DNA of 64,000 bases from Emiliania huxleyi CCMP1516 (Eukaryota), in the NCBI RefSeq assembly GCF_000372725.1, contig NW_005201792.1, forward strand, positions 561,440-625,439, in the 5' to 3' direction. Of this stretch, positions 5,973 through 61,773 are shown piece by piece. The stretch's first letter is position 1; the number at the start of each line of letters is the position of its first letter. A program made the position numbers and the translations under genes. The notes under the pieces were generated by a model, which saw nothing but the letters and a program-made list of their open reading frames with translations, had not been told where the DNA came from and searched no databases.

Positions 5973-7031
5973 GCGCGCCTTGCGGGGAGGGCGCGGAAAA
6001 GAGGAACCTCTTATTTCCATCGCCGCGGAGCTGCAAGCAGCGCCGGGTCTTATGAATTGCGTGGGGGGGGGGGGGCACGTGGGACGCGTCCATCACGGAG
6101 GTTTGCAAGAGAGTTCTCTGTGGAGGAGTTATGGTCGTCGAAGAGAGACTAACAATCGATTGACGTTGCGATTGCCCAGTGGACACGTAAATGAGACACG
6201 CTGTGGGAGGAAGGGCGCACCACCAGAGGATTGTGAGCGCTGTGGAGCGATAGAAGCACGTGCGCGGCATCAGCCCATCGCCTGACGAAAGCTTTGCGTG
6301 AAGCCGTGGACGCAACAGCGGAACCGACGCCTCGTCAGCCTGGAGCTCTCGGGCGGCGGCGTCTCAAGATAGGCTGCGACGGCTGGTTCCAACCTCCCCG
6401 AACGCGAGCCACACGTTTGCACTCTCGAGAAACTCCTGAACCGCAAATAAGAAGCCAGAGAAGGCTCCGCAAACCCGCGTCTTTGCCCTGGAGACCTGCG
6501 TCTTTAGTGACTGCTTGAGTTGCTGAAGCTGACCCTCCGAGAGCTGCGAGGCGGAGACGCCGAGCAGCAGCAGCAGCAGCAGGAGAAGGGAGGCGCCGGG
6601 ACGACGACTCGGTCCAGCGACCACCGCCGTCCCCGCGCCCTTGGCGCCTGCACTGGCGGGCTGTGCTGCCTTTCCTTCCGCCATTGTCGCACCCACAACC
6701 GAGATCTTCTCCCCTAGTGACTCCGGAATGAGGCTGCGCGCCCAGGCGACCGCAGGATGGTCTGCAAACTGCGCAGCGAGGCCCGCGCCCACCCCCGCTC
6801 CGACGGAAAAGATGCCCACTTGGCGCGACATGCTGAATGCCGCACGAGTACCTCGCGACCGTGGAAGGGGGGCGGCGGGCACGCACGGGGCTCGCGGATC
6901 GAGGCGGGGGGAAGTAGACGACGCGCGAAACGCGAAACAGCGACGCCGGTCGTCCGTCCGATTCTCGAGTCACGTTCAAGTAGGCGTACTTTTGGCTCTC
7001 TCTCCTCAAGTGTGTGTGAAGTCATTTCCCG

Positions 7032-7147
7032 CACCCCCCTGGGCGCGGGCCTTCTAGGCCTGCGGGTAGTCTCCCCCCATCCCCAGGGCCTCCAGGGCTC
7101 GCACCTCAACCTCTCACTCATAGATAGACCAGCGCGCAGCGCCATAC
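7032..7147 (+). repeat. Dispersed ~115-bp repeat, copy 1 (copy 2 at ~22831-22943)
   Basis: Shared sequence gggccttctaggcc..gtagtctccccccatccccagggcctccagggctcgcacctcaacctctc..agaccagcgc..agcgccata. Confidence 0.8.
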
Positions 7148-16650: not shown

Positions 16651-19361
16651 TCACCGGTCCATGGCGCCGCTCCAGTACAAGCCCAGCAGCAGGCTAGTGA
16701 GGAGAATGTAGAGCGGGGGCAGCATCAGCGCCATCCACGCGTCGATCTTTGCAGACTTGCGGACGAGCGCCTTGTCCTCCGCGTGGATCCAGTCCGAGCC
16801 GCCCATCGACCCCTCCCCGTTTGGATCCGTCGGCTTGGGGAGCGTAGATTGGCTGGCGTGGTGCATGAGCGCGGGCAGCGCGAGCACCGCCCGCGTGAGC
16901 AGCGAGACGGGCTCGGCCGGCGGGCTGCCGGCTGGCTCTTTGCCCGCCCCGAGCGGCTCGCCGGTCGTGAGGCTCAGCGAGACGTCTGCGGGCGCCGCCG
17001 GCTGCTGCGCGCCGCCGGGAAGCTGCTCCTCGAGCGCGCGCTTCGCCACGAAGGCCGCCTTCCACTCGCCAACGAGGGCGGCGCGGCGCTCGGAGCAGAG
17101 TTCGGCGGTGCGGCGGTCGACTCCGGCGGTGAGCACGAGCTGGTAGCCCGTGACGACGAGCATGAGGCCGACGACGGCGAGTTGGCAAATGGTGAGCGCC
17201 ATCACGAACGGGACTCCCTCGGTGTCGGCGGGCAGGCCGAGGCTTCGCGGCTGCAGCAGCGCCGCGGTGGCGATAGCGCCCAGCGCGAGCACCTGCAGCC
17301 GCGTCGCGGCGGGCTGCAGCGCCGCGAGCGTGGTCAGGCCCATCTGGACAAAGGCGGGCACGAGGACCCTGAAGACGTTGCCGACGGCCACCCGCTCCAG
17401 GTGTATCTCGAAGTCTGCGCACAAGTGCGAGAGTCGCTGCTTGCGGCAATTGGCGCCCGGGCTGGACGAAGAGGACGGCCGGATCACAGCCAAGCGCGGC
17501 GTCCAATCGCGCTTGGTGTAGATTCCCTCGAGGTCGTCCCCATCGAGCCCAGCGTCAGAGTAGCCCGGCGAGTCGAAGTTGAACGAGGTGCGGCGGGCCA
17601 TTCCGGGGCCAAACTTGTCCGCGAGGAAGAAGGAGCCTGTCAAGACCTGTGTGTCGAAGGGGAAGCCTACGGACGGCCAACGGGAGGCGTGTGGGTGCGG
17701 TGGGGGAAGGGGCGGCGGCGGGAGAGGAGGGGAGGGTTACGATTGAGGTTGAAGTCCGACTTGAATGTCATCTCGAGCAGTACGTGCTCCTGCAGGTAGA
17801 CCTGCGCCCGCCACGGGCACGACTCCTGCGTGCACGGCTGCGTGACGGGCTCCGGCTCGTGAGTCGCGTTGCCCGCCGTCCTATGCACTTGCAGCATCGG
17901 GTTGCCGGACACAAAGCTCTCCTCGCTAGAAATGGCGCCGTCGGCCTTGAGAACTGGTCTCCACCAGTCTTTTGCCGGGACGGCGGCCTCGCCAGCGACG
18001 ACGCCGCGGTAAAGATCGATGCCGCAAGGGTGGACAGCGTACCTGCTAGTCCAGGTCAAAGTGACCTCGACGACGACGGTGAATTGTGCGGAAGAGACCG
18101 CCTTGACCGCGTTGACCTTTAGCCGCGAGATGTGGATGACGAGGTCCTGCTCTGGCTCAAAAATCAAGAGGGGCTGGCCGGGATGTTGAGTCGGCGGCAC
18201 GCCGCAAGGCATCTGCTGCCCAGCATCGTCAACCGGGCACGGGAGATGGGGGCCATTGGCAGCGGTTGCATAGACCGCATCGATCCGGCCCGACCCCATC
18301 TCTGGGTATTGACGTGGCGGAGCGGGTATTTTGTCCTCCCATTTTGCACCTCCCACGAGCCAACTGTTTTCACTCCCGAGAACAAGCAACGATTTCGCGT
18401 CGATATACGTGGAGTCGCTGAGGGCCACCGCCGAGTATGTGTTGATGCAGTTAGCGTCATCGGGCGTGCAGTCCCCTCGCTGTTGACACACCTCGACGCT
18501 GTAGTCGTAAGACTCGTAGAGGTCATTTTTGCGGGGCTCGACTTCGCGGATGTAGTTGGCGGCGTTGCTGCTTTCGCTCAAGATTGTCCATCGGCAGTCC
18601 TCGGGATACACCAAGTCCGCCATGTGGTACCACGCACCGTAAAGATCCCAAACACCGGAGACGCCGTTGCAGTCGGCACCTACCGGCGCCGACCCCCAGC
18701 TGTTGTTCTTCCCTCGTCCGCACATGGTCGAGGCCCAGTTATCAAAGCCCCCCCAAATGCACATAGAAGCAGATCCGTACCATGCCGACTGCTTTTCCGG
18801 TGCACGCGCCCATTCCGCCTTTCGGACGAAAGTGTATCGCGCATCATTTGAGTCCGAGTCCACTTGGTTGAAAGGATTCAGCCATGGTTGGTCGAGCGGG
18901 AGGTAACAATTTTTGGCCTCGTCCGTGTCGTCAAGCCTGCACGTGTGCTGCAGCAGCACGATCGAATTGAGTCCCGCTATGGACGCCGGCGGGTAACAGA
19001 GTGGGCCCGAACGAGACAGGTATGGTGAAAAGCAGTACTCGAGATCCGGCGCGAGTGCGGAGGCGTTTTGCGGCTCTCCGTGCCATTTGTCTGTCCACCC
19101 GAATGGGTGAGAGATCTGCATCGGCCACGCCGCGGGCGAAAAGGACACGACGTCGGTCGTCGGCGAGTAGCGCTCCGAAAAGATCTTTGACTCCGTCAGG
19201 GCTGGGTGGGAAGCGACGCCGGCGGTCGGCCAGAGCAGCCAGAGCAGCCACGAGCGCTTGCGGCCGATGCGGAGCGTGGGGCAGGAGGACCGCGCGCTCT
19301 GCCGCGGAAGTAGCCAGGTCAGGACCGCGCGCTCGGCCGCGGAGGGAGCCAGTTCAGGCAT
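16651..19361 (-). CDS. Cys-less (Pro-loop) pentameric ligand-gated ion channel with long Cys/Trp-rich N-terminal extension
   Basis: Removing the GT-AG intron 17667-17740 gives SDFNLNRFPFDTQVL. Also WWRPVL (loop A), FEIHLER before M1 (VFRVLVP), three further hydrophobic helices and M4 IDAWMALMLPPLYILL. Confidence 0.75.
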
Positions 19362-19887: not shown

Positions 19888-22044
19888 ATGTACATGAACA
19901 TGTGGACTGCCTGCGCCGCGGTATCGTCGACCACGGTCCCCAGCCTTGCCATCGATCCGCTCATCACCAGGCTGCTCCGCGCAAACGGAGCAGCGGCATT
20001 TCCGCCGAGCCTTGACGAGATCAACGCTGCGGCTGAGGGGCTCACCGTCTGGCGCCATGCGCTCGCGGCCGGCCGCCTGCCAGATTACGGAGGCACAGAC
20101 GGTGGGTTGCCGCCCTGGCCACCACAGCCACTGCTCGGCACGCTGACCGACACGCTGAGCCGCCTCAGTCTGCCGCGAGCGACGGCGCGGCACCCGTCGC
20201 TCGTCCCGGCAGCCCTCGCCGCCGTGCTCGCCGCTGCGTCTGAATTCGACGCGCGTCGGGTGGCCGCGGTGACAGGCGAGTCGGCCGACGATGACACGGA
20301 GCGAGCGGCTGCAGAGCGAGAGGGGGAGGCGGCGGAGGCGGAGGCGGCGGAGGCGGAGGAGGCAGAGGAGCAGCTGCAGCTCGAGGCGGCGAGACAGATA
20401 GCGCTATCCGTCGAGTCGGAGTGGGCTTCGCCGCTGCGCGGCGTCCGCGCCGTCGAGGGCTTGGGAGGTGGCAGCGGTGGCGACGTCGGCGCGCTGACTG
20501 CTGCGCCAGGCGACAGCTTCAGCCTGGCCGACGGGCTGTGGCGGCACTCGGGCTGGAGTGCTCTCGAGGGTGTGCAGGCGAAGCTGCGCGAGCTGGACGA
20601 GCTCAGCGAGCTGGTGGCGAGCCTCGGCCAGCGGGCCGCGCCGGAGGGCACTCCCATCCGCGGGCCTGCAGTCTCGTTCGACCCGCAGGCCGCACCCTCG
20701 GCCGCGCTGGGCTCTTTCCTGGAACCTGCCCGGACCTTTCCTGGACCTTTCTCTAGGCCGCGCCCTCTGCCGCGCTGAGCGAGCTCTCCCCGCGCGAGCT
20801 GTCCGGCCTGTCGTAGATGCGGGAGCACATCTCCAGATCACATCTCCAGATCACATCTCCAGATCACATCTCCAGACCACATCTCCAGACCACATCTCCA
20901 GATGCGGTTCACATCTCTGTCACAGCACGCAAGGCGCCTCGTCCTCGGGCGGTACTCGACACTGCTCAAGCCGCCAGTCGCCGCGCCCGTCGCTCTTCTA
21001 GTCCCGCGAGACGCGGGTGTGCGACAGTATAGATCCACGCCTCTCATCCTCCAGGCCTCGCGCGCACCGGCGACCTCGCGCGCGTCACACCGGCCGAGCT
21101 CGCGCTGCTGGCCTACGGCGGCGGCGGCGAGGGCGGCGGCGGCGAGGGCGGCGGCGGCGGCGGCGAGGGTCGGGCCGGCCTCCGGCGGCTGTTCCTCAGC
21201 CGCCTCGCGGAGCGTCGGCTGCTCGGGTATGCCCTCGAGGGGTGGGCGGAGGCGAGCGGGAGGCCTCGCCGTCGGCGGCTCGCGCGGCTGCCGCGCGAGC
21301 GAGGCGGGCCGCTCGTGGTCTGCCTCGACACGTCGCACTCGATGGCGGGCGGGCGAGAGACGATCGCGAAGAGCGTCGTCCTCGAGGCCGTCCGCGCGGC
21401 GCACGCGCAAGGGCGACCGTGCCTGCTCTTTGCATTCTCCGGCGCGTCGGACCTGGCCGAGCTGCGGCTGACTCCGGCGGCGCGGCGCGGCGCGTCCAAG
21501 AGGCGGCGCGACGCGGGCGGCGGCGGAGCGGGCGGCAGCATGGACCGGCGCAGCCTGACGCGCCTCCTCGACTTCCTCGCGTGCGGCTTTGGCGGAGGGA
21601 CGGACGTCGCCTCTCCGCTCCGCCGCGCGCTCGACGTGCTCGAGCGGCCGGACGGGGCGGACGTGGTTTACTCCGGCGCAGACTTGCTCCTCGTCTCGGA
21701 CGGCGAACTTCCCGACCCGCCCCTCGACCCGCCCACGGCAGAGAGACTGCGGCGCCTGCGCTCGCGCCAGGGCTTCGAGGCGCACCGGCCACGCCGGCCG
21801 AAGCGCCACACCACGTCGCCTCTCACCGTTGGTCGCCTCGGCGCAGGTGCACGGGCTGCTAGTCGGTGCGCCGCGGCCGACGCCGCTCGATCAGCTGTGC
21901 GACGAGGTGCACACCTGCCTCTCGCGTTTCGACCCGCTCGCTGTGATGCGAGAGAGGTCGGCGGCCCGGCGAGAGGAGCGGCTCGAGGCTGCGCCGGCGT
22001 GGCGGCGGGCGGCGCACCGCACCGCGCTGCCTATCTCTCGCTGA
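19888..22044 (+). CDS. viaA: ViaA-like von Willebrand A (MIDAS) protein, spliced; start uncertain
   Basis: LFLSRLAERRLLGYALEG, GPLVVCLDTSHSMAGGRETIAKSVVL, PCLLFAFS, FLACGFGGGTD and ADLLLVSDGE follow the ViaA/YieM VWA pattern. Confidence 0.8.
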
Positions 22045-22461
22045 AAGGAACCTCTCATTCGCTCGTCCGCACCCGTCACCGCTCACGGAGTGCTCCGCGT
22101 GCCGCACCGGCCGCCGCCGGCCGCCGGCCGCTTACGCGGTAACGGAACAGTGTTACTACTCCGCAACGTTGAGCTGGATCAAACTGAATAGTGCTCCTGA
22201 AAGCCCTCTCTCTGGGCTCTGCCACACAGTAGCAGCTCACGACTAGCAGCTGCTGTGGCTGTATTTGTAGCCATTTCGTTAGGCTTCAACTGGTCCCAAA
22301 ATAGTAGCAACACCTCATGAAAATCAGTCAAAAAAGCCCCAAAAAATCGGCGCCTGCGGCGGGCTTCCTGGGGCTGCGCCCCGGACCCCCTTGACTGGGG
22401 GGACCCCCCCCGAGAGAGCACACCCCCGTCGCGCCCCCCGGGGGCCCGTCGACACCCCAGG
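22027..22461 (+). mobile_element. Right-hand fragment of the TIR element seen complete at 57472-58224
   Basis: Near-identical to 57801-58224 and ends in the right TIR ...gggggcccgtcgacaccccagg. Confidence 0.85.
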
Positions 22462-22830
22462 AGGAGGATGCTGCTGTGCAGGGCGTGGCTGGGAAGGTGG
22501 ACGAGTCGCTCGAGCGTCGGGACGAGCGGGCTTGCGCCACTGGTGGAGGATTCAGTATGCCGCAGGCGGCTCCCACCTCGATGGGTTATCACTCCTGCAC
22601 TGGCGCATTGAAGAGGGGATCAACTCATCAACATTCAACAAACAGGAATCGAGGGTGACCGCATGTCTGCATCAGACGTGTCATCCGTCCCGATCGTGAC
22701 CAACCAAAGCCACCCCCTCTTCGTAGACCCCATTCTGAGGGGTCCTGATTCCAAAGCCGCTCCCAGCCGCACCCGCCAAGCACCTGGGTGCCGCCTCCAC
22801 CTCCGCCTTCAATCTCAATGTCCCACCCCC

Positions 22831-22943
22831 CACCCCCCTGCGCGCGGGCCTTCTAGGCCCGCGGGTACATGTAGTCTCCCCCCATCCCCAGGGCCTCCAG
22901 GGCTCGCACCTCAACCTCTCATAGACCAGCGCAAAGCGCCATA
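22831..22943 (+). repeat. Dispersed ~115-bp repeat, copy 2
   Basis: Matches 7032-7147. Confidence 0.8.
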
Positions 22944-23063
22944 TGACGTATTTTCTTGGGGCAGTGGTTTTTCTTCTCCCTGTCGAACTCTCGCTTCGCC
23001 CCTCCGTGGGCTGCAGTTCCTGCTTGCTTGCTCCCGGCTCGCCGCCGCTTGCCGGTCCTTCGA

Positions 23064-24950
23064 ATGAAGCTCCCACAGCTGCTTGCCGCTCTGCTGCTCG
23101 TCGTCGCCTATGGTCTCAGATTACCGCCGATTTCGCGTGGCGGGGTGATAGGCGCGGCGTTCGCAGCCAGTGCGCCGGCGCGAGGCGGGCGGCGGGCGGC
23201 TCGGTCTACCGCCGTCTGCATGGCGGCACACGCGAGGGCGACGGGGGCGGGGGCGGAGAGGAGGGCGGGCGACCCGGCAGGGCCGCCGCGCATGAGCGTG
23301 GCCGAGGCGGCCGAGGAGGCCGAGGTGGGAGCGTCGGCGGACTTGCGCGAGCGCGCGGCCGCCAGGGTGCGGCAGCAGCTTACGGCGAGCGTGAACGCTC
23401 CCCACAACCCCCGCGGCGTCAGCGTCGCTGGCAGCGTCGGCGCGACCGTGCGACGAGCGACGGCGCTGCTCGAGGTCGGGCTCATCGAGCGCGAGTGCGA
23501 GGCGAGGCTGCTGCTGCTGGCGCTGGTGGGCGGGGAGCACCTTCTCCTCCTGGGGCCGCCGGGCACGGCAAAGTCGGAGCTGTGCCGGCGTCTGTCGACG
23601 ATCGCGCGCCTCGGCTACTTTGAGCGCACGCTCACACGCTTCTCGACGCCCGAGGAGCTCTTCGGGCCGCTCTCGCTCGCCGCCCTCGAGCGCGACGAGT
23701 TCAGGCGAGCCACCGCCGGCTACGCGCCCACGGCGGAGCTCCTTTTCCTCGACGAGATCTTCAAGTCGAACTCGGCCATCCTCAACACGCTGCTGACCTT
23801 ACTCAACGAACGCCTCTTCGACGACGGCGCCAAGCGCGAGCGCGTGCCGCTGCTCTCCGCCGTCGCCGCCTCGAACGAGGGCCCGGAGTCGGACGACTTG
23901 TCGGCGCTGTACGACCGCTTCCTGCTGCGCCGGCTAGTGGCGCCCGTCTCCGACGACGGCGTGCTCGAGCTGCTGCTTGGCGGCGAGGCTGCCGAGGGCG
24001 GGAGCGTGGACGCGGCCCTGCCAGACCTGCGGGAGGCGCTCGAGGAGGTCCGAGCCGCCGCGCCGTCGGTGCGATTGCCGCGGCACGTGGCGCTGCTGCT
24101 GCGCGACGCGCGCGCCTTTGTGCGCGAGACGGGCGCCGACGGCTTGGGAGGCGGCTACGTCTCGGACCGGAGGCTGCGCCGCTCGGCGGAGCTGCTCAAG
24201 GCTTGCGCGGCGGCACACGGGCGCGACACGGTCCGGAGCCGCAGCGCGTCAAGAGTGCGGCTGTCCTCTCTTCACACCCTCCAGCCTAGATAGGTCTCTG
24301 TTGTCGACGTCGCGGCGGTGCTGCCCCACGTCCTGTGGGATACGGCCGAGGAGGCGGCCGCGCTGGCCGAGTGGGTCGAGGACAACGCGTTGCCCGACGG
24401 CGGCGCCGAGCAGCTTCGTTTCTTGCTCGAGTCGGTGCGCTCGAGGGCGGCGGCGGAGGCGGCGGACGAGAGCGCCGGCCCAGCAGCCGAGGCAGCGGGC
24501 GGCGGCGGCGGTTTGGCGGAGGATGCCCTCGCGCTGGCGGCGGCGACCCTGGCGGCGGCGGCCGAGATGCGGCAGCACGTGGGCGCGGTCGAGCGGTCGG
24601 CGGAGCACCTCTTCCTCCCGGCGGCGAAGGCGGCGGTCTTGCGGCAGCGGCTGCTGCCCCGCGCGCGGGAGAGTGCGGAGGAGCTCGAGCAGCTCGCGGC
24701 CGAGGCGGCCCTCTTCGAGCTGGCTTTGGCCGACGGTCTCGACGAGGAGGGGTGGGCGGCGCTGCAGGCCGAGGACGACCTCGACGGGGGCGGCGGCGGC
24801 GAGGCGGGCACAGCGGTGGAGGCGCCAAGCTTCGATTTTGACGAGGCGGAGCTCAGCTGGGGCCGCAAGGAGGCGAAGGCCAAGCTCGGGCCCGAGGAGT
24901 TCAGAGCGTGGCGGAAGGCGGCGAAGGCGGCGGCCAGGAGAGGCGACTGA
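23064..24950 (+). CDS. ravA: RavA-like MoxR-family AAA+ ATPase with signal peptide and transit-peptide-like leader; intron ~24231-24293
   Basis: GEHLLLLGPPGTAKSELCRRL (Walker A), YFERTLTRFSTPEELFGPLSL, LFLDEIFKSNSAILNTLLTLLNERLFDDG (Walker B), ASNE, ALYDRFLLR and YVSDRR. Leader MKLPQLLAALLLVVAYG-LRLPP...RSTAVCMA. Confidence 0.9.
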
Positions 24951-25196
24951 TAAATAAATACACGCAGCCATCTCCAGGAGAGACGACTGAGGTCGATAGA
25001 GAAAGAGGAGGAAGCGCACCACCCAGCGGGCCGGAGATGAGATGATAATTTTGACCGCGCAAAAGACATAAGGGGGTGGCTAAGGGCTATGCTCGCAAGG
25101 CGCCAATAGCAATATCCGTGTTCGTACATCGTAGCGAAAGTGCCGGCGCGAGCAGAACGTCCGCCGAATCCGTCCGTGCTTTCAGGCGCAACTTGA

Positions 25197-25935
25197 GGGG
25201 AAGCCGCTGATCGAGCCCAGCGTCCCGCGGCCGCCTCTCCCGCGCAGTACCGCCGCTGGGGACGACACGCTGCGGAATTGGATCGAGCCCCCATGGAGGA
25301 GGAGGGCGCAGTCGGCGAATTGGAGGAGGAGGAGGGCGTCGAACGAAGCCGCCTCGTGTGGGCCCGATGGGCGTTGTCGTGTCTGACTCAGAGGAGGCGT
25401 TGGAGGTGCTCCAGCAACCTAACCTGATTCGGAAGCTCGCCGACGTTGTCACTCAACGTGCGTCATGCGTGATCGAGCTTGAGGGAGGAGATCAGCTAAC
25501 GATTCGGCCGGCCACCCAGCGCCGCCGCCCACCGCCACCCACAAAGCGCCTGCTCTACTACCCCATGCCACCCGCTCCACTTTCCACTGACCATGCCCGT
25601 GATATTGTACTCGAGTACCATCACTGCCGCCGTCCTGATACGTGGCAGCTAGACTCGGTAGTTGTAACCCCCTGAGTGAGGAGCAGGAGAGAGAGAGCTT
25701 TTGTGGTGTTGGTGTACGCAATAACGGGACAGGGTGGATCTCCCCTTCTAGCTCTTAGCATGAGCTGCGCCCTGTGTCCGACCCCGTTTCGCTTTTGCGC
25801 AGCAACACCTCAATTAAACTTTTAGGCCCTCCAAATTCGGGTCGGAGCGTAGCGCGGAGTGGGCCCCGAGTTTGAAAAGGGCGACGGACGCTTGCGTCCT
25901 AGCAACAACGCCTCCCCAGCGCAGAGGGGCCCCTC
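25197..25935 (+). repeat. Dispersed repeat, uninterrupted copy (interrupted copy at 57152-57471 plus 58225-58648)
   Basis: Long shared blocks, e.g. gtgtctgactcagaggaggcgttggaggtgctccagcaacctaacctgat and ggccctccaaattcgggtcggagcgtagc. Confidence 0.85.
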
Positions 25936-26400: not shown

Positions 26401-26649
26401 GAACTGGTGTGAGACGTGCAGCGCGAGACCATGTCTGCGCTACTTCCACGCACCACGTTCAGAGCTCGTCCCTTCCCCGACTTGAGCGGCGAGCCCTCGC
26501 TGTCTTTTCCCATCTTGATTTGCGCTCCCTTGCCGTCTCTCAGCTCTCCCCCGGTCTCGACGGCGGTCCTCTTCCCAGCTGAGAGCGCACGTTATTTTCT
26601 TCCGGGTTTCGGAGAACGTCCTGGAAACATTCGCAAGTCGCCGACTTCC

Positions 26650-27603
26650 ATGGATTCGTTCGGCCTTGTTCTCCTCCTCACGTCGGCCAGCGGTCTCACC
26701 GTCAAGCCCGCCCTCCTCCCACCACCGCGGTCAATCGCCACGCCTTCTGTGGCCACCAAAACTGCACCATTTGAAGCGGCTTATGGACTCCATAAGCCGC
26801 GCATCAACGAACCGCGGATGGCTGGCACCGACTCTGACACCGCCTCGCGTGCTGGCGCCGCACTGCAGATGGCGATTTATGACGACGCTCGCCAGCGCTC
26901 AGCCAGAGCGCCACGCCGCTGGCCGGCCGCGAGCAAGTGGGTGCTGGCGTCGGCCGCCGCCGCCGCCCTGGTCCAATGCGATTTGGGCGGGCTGCTCGCG
27001 GCGTACAACTCGGCGCTACATGATTGGCCATTCTCCACCAAGGCTCTGAGCACTGGCATCACCTACGTCCTCAGCGACTTGACGGCGCAGGCTCTCGAGC
27101 GGCGGGCTGTCGCCAGCAGCAGCGGTGGCAGCCGGCAAGGCATCACCCTGTCGGCGGCGGGCAGCGAGAGCAAGCTCAGGGTCGGGCGTGCGCTGCGCTT
27201 TGGAGCGGTCGGCCTCCTCTGGGTGGGCCCGCTGCTCGCCGGATGGTTCCAGCTCATGGAGCACTTTGTGCCCGGCCGCTCTGCCGGCGCCGTCACCCGC
27301 AAGCTGATCCTCGACCAACTCGTGCAAGGACCCTTCATGATCGGCACCATGTACCTACTGACCGGCGTCTCGGGCGGGCTGGCGACCGGCCGGGGCTTTG
27401 GTCGATCCCTGCGGCAGGCTCGTCGCACGGCCGAGCAGCAGCTGGCGCCAACGTGGGTGCGGTCCGTCTTTGTGTGGGCGCCGGTGCAGGCGCTGCAGCA
27501 GTTGTTCGTCCCGCTGCAGCACCGCGTGCTCGTCGCGAATGGGGTGAGCTACTTCTGGGACACGTACCTCGCGAACAAAATGGGCGGTGAGGACGAGAGC
27601 TGA
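26650..27603 (+). CDS. Mpv17/PMP22 family membrane protein with bipartite presequence
   Basis: YNSALHDWPFSTKALSTGITYVLSDLTAQ, RALRFGAVG, KLILDQLVQGP and WAPVQALQQLFVPLQHRVLVANGVSYFWDTYL. Confidence 0.9.
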   Translation: MDSFGLVLLLTSASGLTVKPALLPPPRSIATPSVATKTAPFEAAYGLHKPRINEPRMAGTDSDTASRAGAALQMAIYDDARQRSARAPRRWPAASKWVLASAAAAALVQCDLGGLLAAYNSALHDWPFSTKALSTGITYVLSDLTAQALERRAVASSSGGSRQGITLSAAGSESKLRVGRALRFGAVGLLWVGPLLAGWFQLMEHFVPGRSAGAVTRKLILDQLVQGPFMIGTMYLLTGVSGGLATGRGFGRSLRQARRTAEQQLAPTWVRSVFVWAPVQALQQLFVPLQHRVLVANGVSYFWDTYLANKMGGEDES

Positions 27604-55729: not shown

Positions 55730-55906
55730 CCGCTTGCCACGAGATGGGTGCCGCCAAAATATGCGGAACATGCGCAAAAAATCCTATCCCCAGAGGCGCA
55801 AAGAGCCCGAACCCAGCCTCAGTGCGTGCCGTGGCACCGGTTGCGTCTCGCGTGCCTCCGCACCTGCGGCAGCTGCTTTGGCCTCCAGCGATACCGTTTT
55901 GTCCCG

Positions 55907-56536
55907 ATGTGGCGCCGCTGTCGCCGCCTGCGGCCAGTGGCCAGTGCCGGGCTGCTCATGGCCAGTTACCGCACCAGTGCCGTGCAGCCAGCGCTGAGCG
56001 AGCCTCTGTCGCCCAGCAGCGCGAGCCCCGCTGCTCTTCCGGCGTCGCGGGCCGCCTCGAGCGCCGAGGCGAGCGCGGAGGAGGCGCCGAGCGGCCTGCG
56101 CATTGGAGTCACGATGCGAGAGGTGAGGGAGGGGTCGGGCGAGCAAGCCGCCTCTGGGATGCTTGCGACGGTCCACTACACTGTCCGCCTCGTCGGCGAC
56201 GGCACGCTGCTCGAGGACACGCGCAACAGTGGGTATGGGGAGCGCGACTACGGCGCGCCGCTGTCGTTCCGGCTGGGCGAGCTCTCGGACCGAAGGATCC
56301 TGCGTGCCCTGCACCTGTGCGCCCTCGACATGCGCGTCGGCGGCGTGCGGAGGGTGCGCACGTGCTTGCTCGACTCTGACTTTGGGTACACGCGCACGCC
56401 GGAGATACCCACCGCGCGCTCGTACAGGGTCAAGCGAGAGCTGGGCGCAGACTGGCTCATCGACCTGGAGCTGGAGCTGGTGGCGCTGCAACCGCCGCCC
56501 GGCCCGACCCTGCTGGAGAGGCTATTTGGAAAGTGA
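55907..56536 (+). CDS. FKBP-type peptidyl-prolyl isomerase-like protein (divergent); start uncertain
   Basis: EGSGEQAASGMLATVHYTVRL..GTLLEDT..PLSFRLG..ILRALHLCALDMRVGGVRRV..LIDLELELV. Confidence 0.75.
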   Translation: MWRRCRRLRPVASAGLLMASYRTSAVQPALSEPLSPSSASPAALPASRAASSAEASAEEAPSGLRIGVTMREVREGSGEQAASGMLATVHYTVRLVGDGTLLEDTRNSGYGERDYGAPLSFRLGELSDRRILRALHLCALDMRVGGVRRVRTCLLDSDFGYTRTPEIPTARSYRVKRELGADWLIDLELELVALQPPPGPTLLERLFGK

Positions 56537-57471
56537 GTCGCGACTGGAGTCACCGCGTTTTTTGTGTACCTGAACCCTCTGCGCTACTTCACACTTACAC
56601 ACGGCCCGACGTGTGCGTAGCGTGACTAAGAGACTAGTCCAGTAGTAGCACGTAGGGTCGTACGTGCCACAGGCGGGGCATGCCCCCGCGGCTCAGCTTC
56701 AGGTGAGTTCATCTTGCCGGCGGTACCCGACGCTGCTCGAACGGCAGTTGTCGACCGCCGGCAGTTGACCGGCAAGATGAAGTCCACTGCGCTCGAAAAA
56801 CATACCACCGGAAGCGCCTCGCCGAGGCGCACAAGAGTCCCCGTCAGCGCCACGCGCGAGAGCATGTGTCCAATGTGCAACGCGGCGGCGCGATGAGTCA
56901 CGGGACGACCGACGGAAGCCGGACAAGCCACAAAACTCGCTCTCGCAGAGCAGGTTTTCACCGATTTGCTGTGGGCGTTGGCTGAAATAGTGCTCAAACC
57001 GACCAACGAAAACGGCACTAGTTAAGGGCAAAACCCGATTTGCTGTGGGGGGCGTTAAGTCAGCCCTCGCGTTTGGCCCGCTTCGTTCGCCCCACCCAGC
57101 CCAACCGCTCTCCCCACGCTCTTCGCCGTGTGGCGGCCGTCCTTCCTGCAAGGGAAAGCCGCTGATCGAGCCCAGCGTGCCCGCGGCCGCCTCCCGCGCA
57201 GCACCGCCGCTGGGGACGACACGCTGCGGAATTGGATCGAGCCCATGGAGGAGGAGGGCGCAGTCGGCGAATCGGAGGAGGAGGAGGAGGGCGCAGTCGT
57301 CGACGTTGGCGTGTCTGACTCAGAGGAGGCGTTGGAGGTGCTCCAGCAACCTAACCTGATCCAGAAGCTCGCCGACGTTGTCACTCAACGTGCGTCATGC
57401 GTGATCGAGCTTGAGGGAGGAGCTCAGCTAACGATTCGGCCGGCCACCCAGCGCCGCCGCCCACCGCCACC

Positions 57472-58224
57472 CCTGGGGTGTCGACGGGCCCCCGGGGGCG
57501 ACGGGGGTGCTCGCTCCGGCCGCGGCGGCCGAAAACGGGGACCTCTAACTAGGTCTAACTTTGAAGTGATGCACTTGATGCAAGGGTGCCATTGTGCTCT
57601 ACTACAAAAGTTGTGTAAGATGCCCAAGTCTCAGACGCTGGATCCTTAGCGGAGCTGAGTTCTGACGGTGTGAACACGAGCAACCGGAGTGACGACCGGG
57701 ACCGGGCCGTACGCCGGGAGTGCCCCGACTAGCAGTGACGGGCGCGGACGAGCGAATGAGAGGTCGCTATCTGTGGAAGATGTGTTGTTAGGGACTAGGA
57801 CTGCCTATCTCTCACTGAAAGGGACCTCTCATTCGCTCGTCCGCACCCGTCACCGCTCACGGAGTGCTCCGCGTGCCGCACCGGCCGCCGCCGGCCGCCG
57901 GCCGCTCACGGCAACGGAACAGTCTTACTACTCCGCAACGTTGAGCTGGATCAAACTTAATAGTGCTCCTGAAAGCCCTCTCTCTGGGCTCTGCCACACA
58001 GTAGCAGCTCATGACGAGCAGCTGCTGTGACTGTATTTGTAGCCATTTTTAGGCTTCAACTGGTCCCAAAATAGTAGCAACACCTCATGAAAATCAGTCA
58101 AAAAAGCCCCAAAAAATCGGCGCCTGCGGCGGGCTACCTGGGGCTGCGCCCCAGACCCCCTTGACTGGGGGGACCCCCCGCGAGAGCACCCCCGTCGCCC
58201 CCGGGGGCCCGTCGACACCCCAGG
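57472..58224. mobile_element. 753-bp non-autonomous DNA transposon with 41-bp perfect TIRs and 8-bp TSD (ccgccacc)
   Basis: TIR cctggggtgtcgacgggcccccgggggcgacgggggtgctc at 57472-57512 and its reverse complement at 58184-58224. TSD at 57464-57471 and 58225-58232. Empty site visible near 25532-25539. Confidence 0.95.
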
Positions 58225-58991: not shown

Positions 58992-60854
58992 ATGGGCCTG
59001 TCCCTCTCTTCTTCGCTGCGGATCGGCCTGCTCTCAGCCGCGGCTGGAACCGCTGCTGGCTTCTCCTTCGGCGCAGCTGCCGCCTCCGGGGTCCGCAGAA
59101 CCGCAAGCACCGGCCTGCGGCCCGCGTCGCTCGCTGCGCAGAGCAGTGCTGCCGCCGTGTCGTTTAAGGACGCTGGGCTGTGCAAGAAGCTCGACGTGCC
59201 AGCCGACCTGCTCGAGAAGGCTCGCAGCCGCACGTGGCCTGTGTGACACATCGCAACGTTGACTCTCGCACTTTACCGGCAGGTCGACGTCTTCATCTTT
59301 GACTGCGACGGCGTCATCTGGAAGGGCGACTCGCTCATCGACAAGGCCCGCACTCCCGCGCATAGATAGCTTCTGGCCTCTCATACATCGGCGTTCCTCA
59401 CGCTCAGGTGCCTGCCGTCCTGGCGATGCTGCGTGCGGCGGGCAAGAAGGTCTTCTTCGTCACAAACAACTCGACCAAGTCCAGGAAGGGCTACCTCGGC
59501 AAGTTCAAGTCGCTCGGACTAGAGGCGGAGAGGGAGAGGGAGGAGGGCGGCGGCATGCTAGACCTTGCTCACACCCCGCCGCCGCGACCTGCCAGGAGAC
59601 GCAGCCCGAGGAGATCTTCTCCTCCTCGTTTGCCGCCGCCGCCTACTTGGAGCAGGCAGCTGCAGGGCCCTCTTCCACCTGCCTTAGCACTCACCTCCCC
59701 CTCCCCCCCCCTGGCTCCCCACCCGCACCTTCGGCACGCGGCAGACCAAGTTCAAGGAGAGCGGCAAGAAGGTGTACATCATCGGCGAGGTTGGCATCGA
59801 GGAGGAGCTCGACATGATCGGGGTGCCGTGGATCGGAGGTGTGCCTCCGCCCTCGCGCTGGCTGTACCCGCCTCTCCTGCCGTGGCGCACGCCCTTGCCC
59901 TGTCCAGCAGCCGCTGCCGCTCAAAGTGCCGCCACGGTCACACTCTCCCTCGTACTTGCCGCCCTCCCCTCGCGCCTGCGCCACCGCCCCTGCGCCATCC
60001 GAACATCTCTCCGCCCGCAGGCGGCAGCGACGCGGGCAAGAAGATCGCACTCAAGTCCGGGTGCTGCCCCCCTCCGGTGCAGACAGGCTCGTGTCGTGCG
60101 CCCTCCAGCACCGACGCAGCACGCGCCTGCAGGTACGCGCTGCCGCACGACTCCGACGTGGGCGCCGTCATCGTCGGCTTTGACCGCGAGATCAACTACC
60201 ACAAGATCCAGTACGCGCAGCTCTGCATCAACGAGAACCCGGGCTGCGAGTTCATCGCCACCAACCTCGACGCAGTGACGCACCTCACCGACGCGCAGGA
60301 GCATCCCCTCCTCCACCCCCCTCCTCCACCCCCCTCCGCCACCCCCCTCCGCCACCACCAGAAGAGAGGGCTCCCCACTGGCCGGGGCCCTCCACCGGCG
60401 GCGCTCAGCCGCCCGCCCGCCCCTCCTTGCCGCGCGACGCCCCGCCCAGTCCGCGCCGCTCCCGCACCTCGAGCAGGAATGGGCGGGCAACGGCGCGATG
60501 GCCGGCGCCATCAAGGGCTGCACCGGCCGCGAGCCGACCCTCGTCGGCAAGCCCTCGCCGCTGATGATCGACTACATGGTCGAGAAGTTCGGCATCGAGC
60601 GGGGCCGCATCTGCATGGCGACCGCCGCCGCCGTGCCATGCTGTGCCGCTCCGCGCCGCCCCGCGCCCACACCCTACCCCGCCGTCTCTACGCAGGTGGG
60701 CGACCGGCTGGACACGGACATCCTGTTTGGGCAAAACAACGGCCTCCTCTCTTGCCTCACCCTCTCGGGGGTCACGACCGAGGAGAAGCTGCTCTCGCCC
60801 GAGAATGAGATCAAGCCCGACTTTTATGTGGACTCTCTCGCCGACTTTCTGTAG
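58992..60854 (+). CDS. PGLP: Phosphoglycolate phosphatase (HAD class IIA), plastid-targeted, multi-exon
   Basis: VDVFIFDCDGVIWKGDSLID, KKVFFVTNNSTKSR, FIATNLDAVTHLTDAQE/WAGNGAM, VGKPS and VGDRLDTDILFG. Signal peptide ends ..TAAG-F. Confidence 0.93.
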
Positions 60855-61773
60855 AGGGAAGCACACTCTACGCGCGGGGGTCTCACGGGAGGAAAAGATA
60901 TAAAGTGTGTCTCACCGACTGAATAAATAAACAAATAAAACGGACAAACTCTGACACTGAGACGAGATGGGATTTAGGGACATGTGTCCCCGCCCTGCAC
61001 GATCTTGGTGTGAGGATCTTGAATCCGTGTCCCCTCACCCCTCGTCACAACCCGACACGCGGAAGAGCGGTGCAAGAGAGTGGCGTGAGCCGTGAGGGCT
61101 CTTATAACCGCAAGAGAGCCAAGACTGCTTTTTGTGTGACATTCTAATATCGATCAACCCTCCCTCTCTCTCTCTTGAGACTCGGCTCTAGTGTCGGAGA
61201 GTGGATGTGAGTCAAAGATAGCCGGATCAAAATCAGCGCCGTGGCGACAACGACAAGGGGGGCTCTCCCAAGGCGGAGCCGTTCGATGTTCGAGGTGCTT
61301 GGACCTTGGTCGTGTACAGTGTTGGTTTCGGCGTAACGTAGGCTTGGTCAGGGCAGCATCTAGCTACTCTTGGATTTCCCGGAAGACAGCGTCAAGAAGA
61401 AGCTCACCCCAGAAGCACACGGAAAGAATGCTCCAGTCCTGAGCTTGAGCACCTAGACTACCTAGGGCAAGCGCGTAGATGCCGAAGCCCACGTTCTTGG
61501 ACAAGATCGCGGCGACTTGCATTCGAGGGGATCCGACGAAGGGATCGATGAAGGGGCCCAAAGGGGTCGATGCGTCCTCTTGGTCCTCTTGTGCCGCCTT
61601 GGTTTATTTTGTAGGCCGATTTTATTTTTTTGAGGGGTGCCCGGCGCCGAGCTTTTAGGGTCGGACCTCAAGACAGCCTTGTAGATCCCTGGGCCAGGGT
61701 GATGGCGTCCCCGTCGGGAGCGCTGTGTGTTGGTGGAGGAAGGACAGCAACCACAGGCAGGTGCCCGGCAGCG

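Follow-up and report, generated by a model that had tools for sequence, protein, structure and literature searches.

RavA and ViaA of Escherichia coli, a MoxR-type AAA+ ATPase and a VWA-domain protein, have been tied to respiratory complexes and to membrane lipids (PMC9489729, PMC3893208). CbbQ–CbbO and NorQ–NorD follow the same design of an ATPase and a VWA adaptor. The locus described here lies in a 64,000-nucleotide stretch of the forward strand of Emiliania huxleyi CCMP1516 (contig NW_005201792.1, positions 561,440 to 625,439), referred to below as the window, with positions counted from its first letter. A ViaA-like gene is followed there by a RavA-like gene, and a sequence-only reading had taken them for a bacterial operon pair that was acquired by horizontal transfer, kept in linkage and redirected to the plastid. 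Our analysis points to a different history. The two genes are probably the halves of an ancestral algal ViaA–RavA fusion, split by a 1144-base insert that gave ViaA a stop codon and RavA a copied signal peptide, which likely routes RavA to the stroma, where it would act with ViaA as a remodelling chaperone.

Gene pair and fused allele

The two genes are on the same strand with a spacing of 1019 bases, and the spliced translations of both contain no internal stops (Table 1). The ViaA-like gene has three GC–AG introns and the RavA-like gene one GT–AG intron; GC splice donors form the majority in E. huxleyi (PMC4028052). Transcript evidence came from contigs of five runs, one recorded as RNA and four presumed to be RNA, their contigs being spliced. 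Introns 1 and 3 of ViaA and the RavA intron, the latter in four runs, were spliced in these contigs, while intron 2 of ViaA was placed by protein alignment to relatives and its splicing is not among the RNA joints displayed. The open models and spliced introns confirm the earlier description of two co-oriented, intron-bearing genes about 1 kb apart. The closest named protein is an E. huxleyi model (98%). In the GC–AG introns 20689–20756 and 20806–21054, the opening bases duplicate the start of the next exon (~20 and 4 bases, respectively), and ViaA intron 2 contains a tandem repeat.

Table 1 Positions of the gene pair, the insert and its parts, and the related element copy in the window.
Feature	Positions	Strand	Description
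ViaA-like gene	19888..22044	+	590 aa; exons 19888-20688, 20757-20805, 21055-21779, 21847-22044; once the N-terminal half of the fusion
GCGC duplication bounding the insert, left copy	22024..22027	+	4 bases; L001 alignments overlap by 4 bases
Right half of terminal-inverted-repeat element	22027..22461	+	412/435 bases identical to 57801-58224; gives the last residues of ViaA, its stop (22042-22044) and 3' untranslated region (UTR)
Insert absent from the fused allele	22028..23171	+	1144 bases; missing from L001 and an X13 RNA contig
Dispersed repeat within the insert	22827..22943	+	85% identical to 7028-7146
Copied 5' UTR and presequence of a lumen-type protein gene (EMIHUDRAFT_445469/434193)	23027..23181	+	last 10 bases common with the fusion linker
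RavA-like MoxR AAA+ gene	23064..24950	+	607 aa; exons 23064-24230, 24294-24950; once the C-terminal half of the fusion
Old fusion linker	23172..23222	+	Arg/Ala-rich, acid-free, ending V-C-M; in the fused allele and, in kind, in other fusions
Full-length element copy	57472..58224	.	753 bases; 41-base perfect terminal inverted repeat; 8-base target-site duplication

A metagenome contig, L001, is 98.5% identical to window positions 21061–22027 and 23172–25328 and has nothing between them. Because its introns are unspliced, L001 is DNA. Once spliced, it has 867 stop-free codons that lead from ViaA on into RavA and differ from the window by 8 silent and 3 replacement changes. The same joint, from 22023 to 23172 and in frame, is present in an RNA contig of run X13. 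That contig could suggest a single gene from which the 1.1-kb stretch is spliced out as an intron. Such a reading is highly improbable, since GT–AG or GC–AG ends occur at none of the five equivalent cut positions of the insert, the joint also occurs in L001 beside unspliced introns and hence exists as DNA, and a contig of run X1 reads through the ViaA stop without splicing. Judged from these sequences, the split in the window is a derived allele of an ancestral fusion gene, because the near-identical L001 lacks the insert and reads through in frame.

Support for the insert itself was assessed with a junction-crossing bar of 31 bases. The left junction is crossed by 229 bases in the X1 contig, which continues through the ViaA stop, unspliced, to 22256, and by 29 bases, below the bar, in a contig of run X2. 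An assembly error in an organism that has the fused gene only would account for an insert built of repeats and a copy of another gene, and for RNA contigs that cross the right junction by fewer than 31 bases. This explanation is very unlikely in view of the left crossing in X1, of the RavA contigs in X1 and X2 (runs of two different studies) that start within the insert at 23152, and of the ~5% difference between the insert copies and their sources, which is not expected of a mis-join. The opening residues of the named E. huxleyi model are encoded only by window-type insert letters; this model may stem from the same assembly and would then not be independent.

Sources of the insert

Both ends of the insert have identifiable sources. 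The left end is the right half of a terminal-inverted-repeat element that is present in the window as one full and one half copy and has the characters of a non-autonomous DNA transposon resembling a miniature inverted-repeat transposable element. The full copy sits in a dispersed repeat, an empty copy of which lies near 25200–25900. RNA cover was low or nil at 22405–22778 and 22960–23009, which we do not count as a finding.

The right end was copied from the gene of a 187-residue protein (P0168/P0169, EMIHUDRAFT_445469/434193). RNA contigs of this donor gene match 23027–23181 with 5–7 differences and then diverge, and their depth exceeds that of RavA in most runs. The donor protein has a signal peptide, a twin-arginine, a hydrophobic stretch and an A-V-A site, which is the layout of a thylakoid-lumen protein. 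Its identification as PsbP, suggested by a resemblance of the mature start, was unsupported, with no match in Pfam or PDB. Its Atlas neighbours (0.91–0.92) are MPH2/PsbQ/Psb31-like and share fewer than 170 features, which makes them a lead only.

The copy in the window is identical to P0168 at 36 of 39 residues, the replacements being S16Y, L23I and R26G. The last of these turns the twin-arginine RR of the donor into RG, and the copy ends before the donor's lumen cleavage site. The donor and the fusion linker have ten bases in common at the right end of the insert, in the same frame. The insert may have arisen by templated repair guided by these ten shared bases, which would also have set the frame, and the donor's promoter region would have come along with the presequence. 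Loss of the twin-arginine and of the lumen cleavage site would leave a stromal signal, completed by the old linker.

Fused relatives and phylogeny

A search with the VWA exon among longer proteins returned 19 matches. In 11 of these the RavA ATPase stands behind the VWA domain, as in a Prymnesium parvum protein of 1165 residues. Another six break off within or shortly behind the VWA domain, have unrelated tails, and could be incomplete calls or further splits. When a library of 1.84 billion proteins was searched with a ViaA profile, 27 of the best 150 matches were fusions; named fusions come from six genera (Prymnesium, Mallomonas, Euglena, Cymbomonas, Polarella and Effrenium), and no red-algal sequence was among the named matches, which does not by itself show absence from red algae. 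An Atlas cluster holds 61 eukaryotic fusions, mostly from diatoms where the source is known. The labels haptophyte-like and diatom-clade, as used here for unnamed proteins, were assigned from tree position and presequence. Most chlorophytes carry separate RavA-like and ViaA-like genes with transit-peptide-like N-termini.

Bacterial gene order was examined in the best 80 of at least 596 loci for a gammaproteobacterial-led query, among which no cyanobacterial locus was found. The viaA gene lies downstream of ravA in 71 of these loci and is fused to it in that order in one; no viaA was seen in the other eight, seven of which have a short flank. The viaA-first order of the window occurs in none of the 80, and E. 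coli likewise has ravA first. A single-protein scan of bacterial genomes returned no relative. At L034:725-3157, a gammaproteobacterial locus, RavA and ViaA share a single frame in the bacterial order, which may reflect a frameshift.

Trees were quick LG+G4 reconstructions with support from the Shimodaira–Hasegawa-like approximate likelihood ratio test (SH-aLRT) only. One clade unites the algal ATPases (59 of 89 rows, SH-aLRT 96), except for one long green-algal row that falls outside it, and another unites the algal ViaA sequences (57 of 87 rows, SH-aLRT 99). Both halves of the window pair nest among haptophyte fusions (SH-aLRT 96 and 95). Fusions other than those of dinoflagellates come together in the ViaA tree with a support of 100, and Cymbomonas is the first of them to branch off. 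Since the RavA and ViaA trees are congruent, both genes share one origin, and together with the family matches this bears out the assignment to a common bacterial RavA/ViaA type. The bacterial transfer is ancient and common to many algae and is not specific to this lineage. The tree topology fits one old bacterial transfer, a fusion in a green alga and later spread. The dinoflagellate-clade fusions P0269, P0271 and P0275 form a separate clade with linkers of about 300 residues, and perhaps represent an independent fusion; P0271 is named Clp R domain-containing, and P0269 and P0275 look similar by eye.

These results bear directly on adjacency as a retained operon, that is, a bacterial pair that was transferred and has remained linked as two genes ever since. 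Both genes do come from one bacterial RavA/ViaA lineage in which they are neighbours. We nevertheless regard this as the least probable of the histories considered, because the order is opposite to that of 71 of the 80 bacterial loci, the halves nest among fusions, a near-identical allele is fused in frame, and the DNA between the genes was taken from other places in the genome.

Fusion linker

In the window, the old linker now likely forms the end of the RavA transit peptide. Across 36 fusions, the median length of the longest acid-free run in the linker is 37.5 residues. This run exceeds shuffled sequences (p < 0.05) in 18 of 36 linkers, whereas two control regions gave 4 of 22 and 1 of 25; on their own, 1 of 10 haptophyte rows passes. 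The linker rows are related by descent, so that p-values overstate their independence. In the predicted model of the fusion the linker is disordered, with a predicted local distance difference test score (pLDDT) below 50 at 557–575.

The published diatom rule for stromal cleavage (PMC3774753) was then applied. In its strict form it fits 6 of 18 ochrophyte-like linkers (0.9 expected; 0 of 15 control regions) and none of 12 haptophyte linkers. A loose form fits 11 of 12 haptophyte linkers (5.5 expected), 9 of 11 other ochrophyte-like linkers (4.6 expected) and only 3 of 7 diatom-clade linkers (2.5 expected). This rule replaced an earlier motif test (10 of 12 and 16 of 18), which was circular, its patterns having been written after the linkers were seen.

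The simplest reading of the linker composition is that the fusion trapped RavA's own transit peptide. In many algae the linker resembles an internal transit peptide, so the fusion could be a polyprotein that is cleaved. That such a linker has persisted suggests that it is cut after import, and the pair would then not be held to a one-to-one ratio; given the CbbQ6O1 stoichiometry, an uncut one-to-one fusion would be unusual (PMC5437159). Alternatively, the linker may be merely flexible. We put forward, as a possibility that is more doubtful than likely, that many algae make a plastid RavA–ViaA polyprotein whose internal transit-peptide linker is cut by the processing peptidase of the stroma, which releases the two subunits, and that coccolithophores segregate an allele that restored two genes by capturing a lumen presequence, retuned to the stroma by loss of the twin-arginine.

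Family, motifs and predicted structure

Both proteins match NCBIfam families, ViaA with an E-value of 2e-18 and RavA with 3e-57, at scores far below the equivalog cut-offs (for RavA, 195 bits from exon 1 against 681). The ViaA-like protein also matches Pfam VWA_2 above its cut-off. The ATPase is 42% identical to E. coli RavA over 295 residues, the alignment ending at E. coli residue 299, and on that alignment the Walker A, Walker B, sensor I, arginine finger and sensor II motifs are at residues 164, 228, 268, 282 and 367. The ViaA-like protein is 26% identical to E. coli ViaA over 307 residues, with similarity beginning at residue 179. Its MIDAS motif (DxSxS, T, D), in the C-terminal VWA domain, is intact, with DTSHS at 375 and the T and D aligned to E. 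coli ViaA. The N-terminal domain of ViaA (about 300 residues) is helical in the predicted model of the fusion. A lipid-binding basic C-terminal helix was sought; the ViaA tail is Arg-rich, yet it consists of the start of the fusion linker and insert-derived residues.

A structure model was made for P0139, which is near-identical to the window RavA (pLDDT 89). Its best structural match is RavA 3nbx (Z 34.2, root-mean-square deviation 4.4 over 364 residues, with model residues 69–473 on chain residues 3–497), and the match extends into the helical C-terminal (triple-helical) domain. Scores against CbbQ and NorQ were Z 12.7 and Z 12.3, respectively. After residue 340 the P0139 model contains helices only and the LARA beta-sandwich is absent, as the sequence-only reading had noted for the C-terminus. 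The pair is thus of the RavA–ViaA type and should work like RavA–ViaA, but is not an equivalog of the E. coli pair.

Targeting and likely function

The RavA N-terminus combines a hydrophobic segment (best 8-residue hydropathy 3.4) with a following acid-free, Arg/Ala-rich stretch, in agreement with the earlier description. By composition only, a bipartite presequence of signal peptide and acid-free basic transit peptide, as used for red-lineage plastids, fits RavA and is weak in ViaA. RavA likely goes to the plastid, as had been proposed from its N-terminus. The presequence is composite, however: its signal was recently copied from another gene and is joined to the old fusion linker.

Several observations weigh against the proposed history and targeting. 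The continuous fused allele was seen in one DNA contig (L001), and the right junction is crossed by 20 bases only, below the bar, the RavA contigs of X1 and X2 beginning where noted above. The window's own letters at 23084–23144 appear in none of the RNA contigs, and use of the ATG at 23064 is predicted. In X13, X2 and X9, the contig matches to ViaA begin at 19901 and the letters upstream are different, so that the first five ViaA residues are without RNA support and the window's ViaA start (19888–19900) may be allele-specific. The ViaA N-terminus is the least hydrophobic of 11 ViaA-type N-termini (1.57 vs 1.86–3.41); together with the upstream differences, this means that ViaA may not be imported. 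X13 and X9 further carry a segment at 23208/23209. On the functional side, mutants of the Chlamydomonas relative Cre13.g603225 scored only -0.16, -0.22 and -0.35 in three of five heat screens (PMC9110296), and most bacterial loci have no recurring neighbour.

The segment at 23208/23209 shows as 52 and 152 unmatched letters in X13 and as 28 in X9, the latter with an in-frame ATG. It may be a third allele, a second split, a longer linker or a retained intron.

Some of these observations are the basis of the most serious competing account, which accepts the same derived split but holds the allele to be crippled or neutral: the halves are transcribed, but ViaA would lack a working signal peptide or RavA would be mistargeted, and the system would be decaying in some strains. 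The weak ViaA N-terminus with three runs differing upstream of 19901, the second segment in the linker, which hints at relaxed constraint, and three replacements within the 39 residues of the copied presequence all speak for it. We consider this account unlikely, though worth serious attention. Both frames are open with all catalytic motifs present, silent changes exceed replacements against L001, and the captured sequence, which is in frame, has kept its strength as a signal peptide. In the functional split that we favour, RavA would be a hexameric ATP-driven motor in the stroma and ViaA an adaptor that grips the client through its MIDAS site, by analogy with related systems.

Clues to the client come from relatives. 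Cre13.g603225 is listed as a moxR ATPase that co-purifies with plastid ribosomes and belongs to the ribosome interactors altered after 180 min of heat (PMC8894945, Table 1); the supplement of that paper held no match. In the other two high-temperature screens its mutants scored -1.49 and -1.39, and in low-oxygen low light -1.19; about 78 of the 124 column heads of the source were covered (PMC9110296). An unmatched MoxR-like protein drops by 54% in heat (PMC3186191). The data on the Chlamydomonas relative suggest a heat-stress role by analogy. Bacterial relatives adjoin genes for molybdopterin/Fe-S oxidoreductases in 11–12 of the 80 loci and DUF364 in 14. The Chlamydomonas heat and low-oxygen data, these neighbours and the respiratory link of E. 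coli RavA–ViaA together favour a role in repairing or maturing plastid complexes with metal cofactors when the cell is stressed, about evenly balanced against general protein quality control. The most likely clients would then be plastid complexes with metal or Fe-S cofactors that require repair in heat or at low oxygen, which is the weakest step of the proposed mechanism. The data on the pair gave no support for Rubisco as a client.

Neighbouring genes

A gene of the Mpv17/PMP22 family lies downstream of the pair (26512–27600). Upstream, the minus strand at 16654–19361 holds a divergent gene with long frames and no Pfam match. Farther away are a frame at 55900–56540 that we take, by eye from its motifs, to be FKBP-like, and an intron-rich gene at 59000–60860, presumably, on the same basis, a HAD phosphatase resembling phosphoglycolate phosphatase.

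Comparison with known systems

We found no account of an algal ViaA–RavA fusion or its split in the openly readable literature, subscription papers being outside the scope and the supplements of PMC5462543 unread. The novel points are the fission, which is segregating, the identity of the presequence donor and a linker that resembles a transit peptide. The origin of plastid targeting signals in nuclear genes is usually inferred from ancient, overwritten events. Here the donor gene and the unsplit allele can still be read, as can the breakpoints and the shared bases, so that strains can be compared with one another to test presequence capture and gene fission; if the proposed history is true, the birth of a plastid-targeted gene has been caught within a species group. 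An unstudied RavA–ViaA chaperone is present in green algae, haptophytes, ochrophytes, Euglena and dinoflagellates. If the linkers do act as internal transit peptides, they would let algae build a two-subunit machine from one gene.

Compared with E. coli ravA–viaA, the algal genes are nuclear, intron-bearing, in reverse order and ancestrally fused. The algal RavA-like protein has an extra N-terminal helix and a C-terminal helical tip, and because the pair is without LARA, an LdcI cage or LARA lipid binding is not expected. CbbQ–CbbO and NorQ–NorD, for all their likeness in design, are structurally far more distant. The best Pfam match of the ATPase is bpMoxR (PF20030, 191 bits), the family of ternary conflict systems; the beta-propeller partner of those systems is not recurrent beside the bacterial relatives of algal RavA, and both structure and partner are of the RavA/ViaA type. 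Cre13.g603225 and the stand-alone RavA-like and ViaA-like proteins of chlorophytes belong to the same algal clade as the window pair and have transit-peptide-like N-termini, but in most green algae the genes are separate and were apparently never fused. The plastid polyproteins and translational fusions of euglenophytes and dinoflagellates likewise have one presequence and two linker-joined proteins (PMC6242988). Their linkers are short, whereas the ViaA–RavA linker is like a whole transit peptide with a cleavage-site-like end and occurs in several algal lineages.

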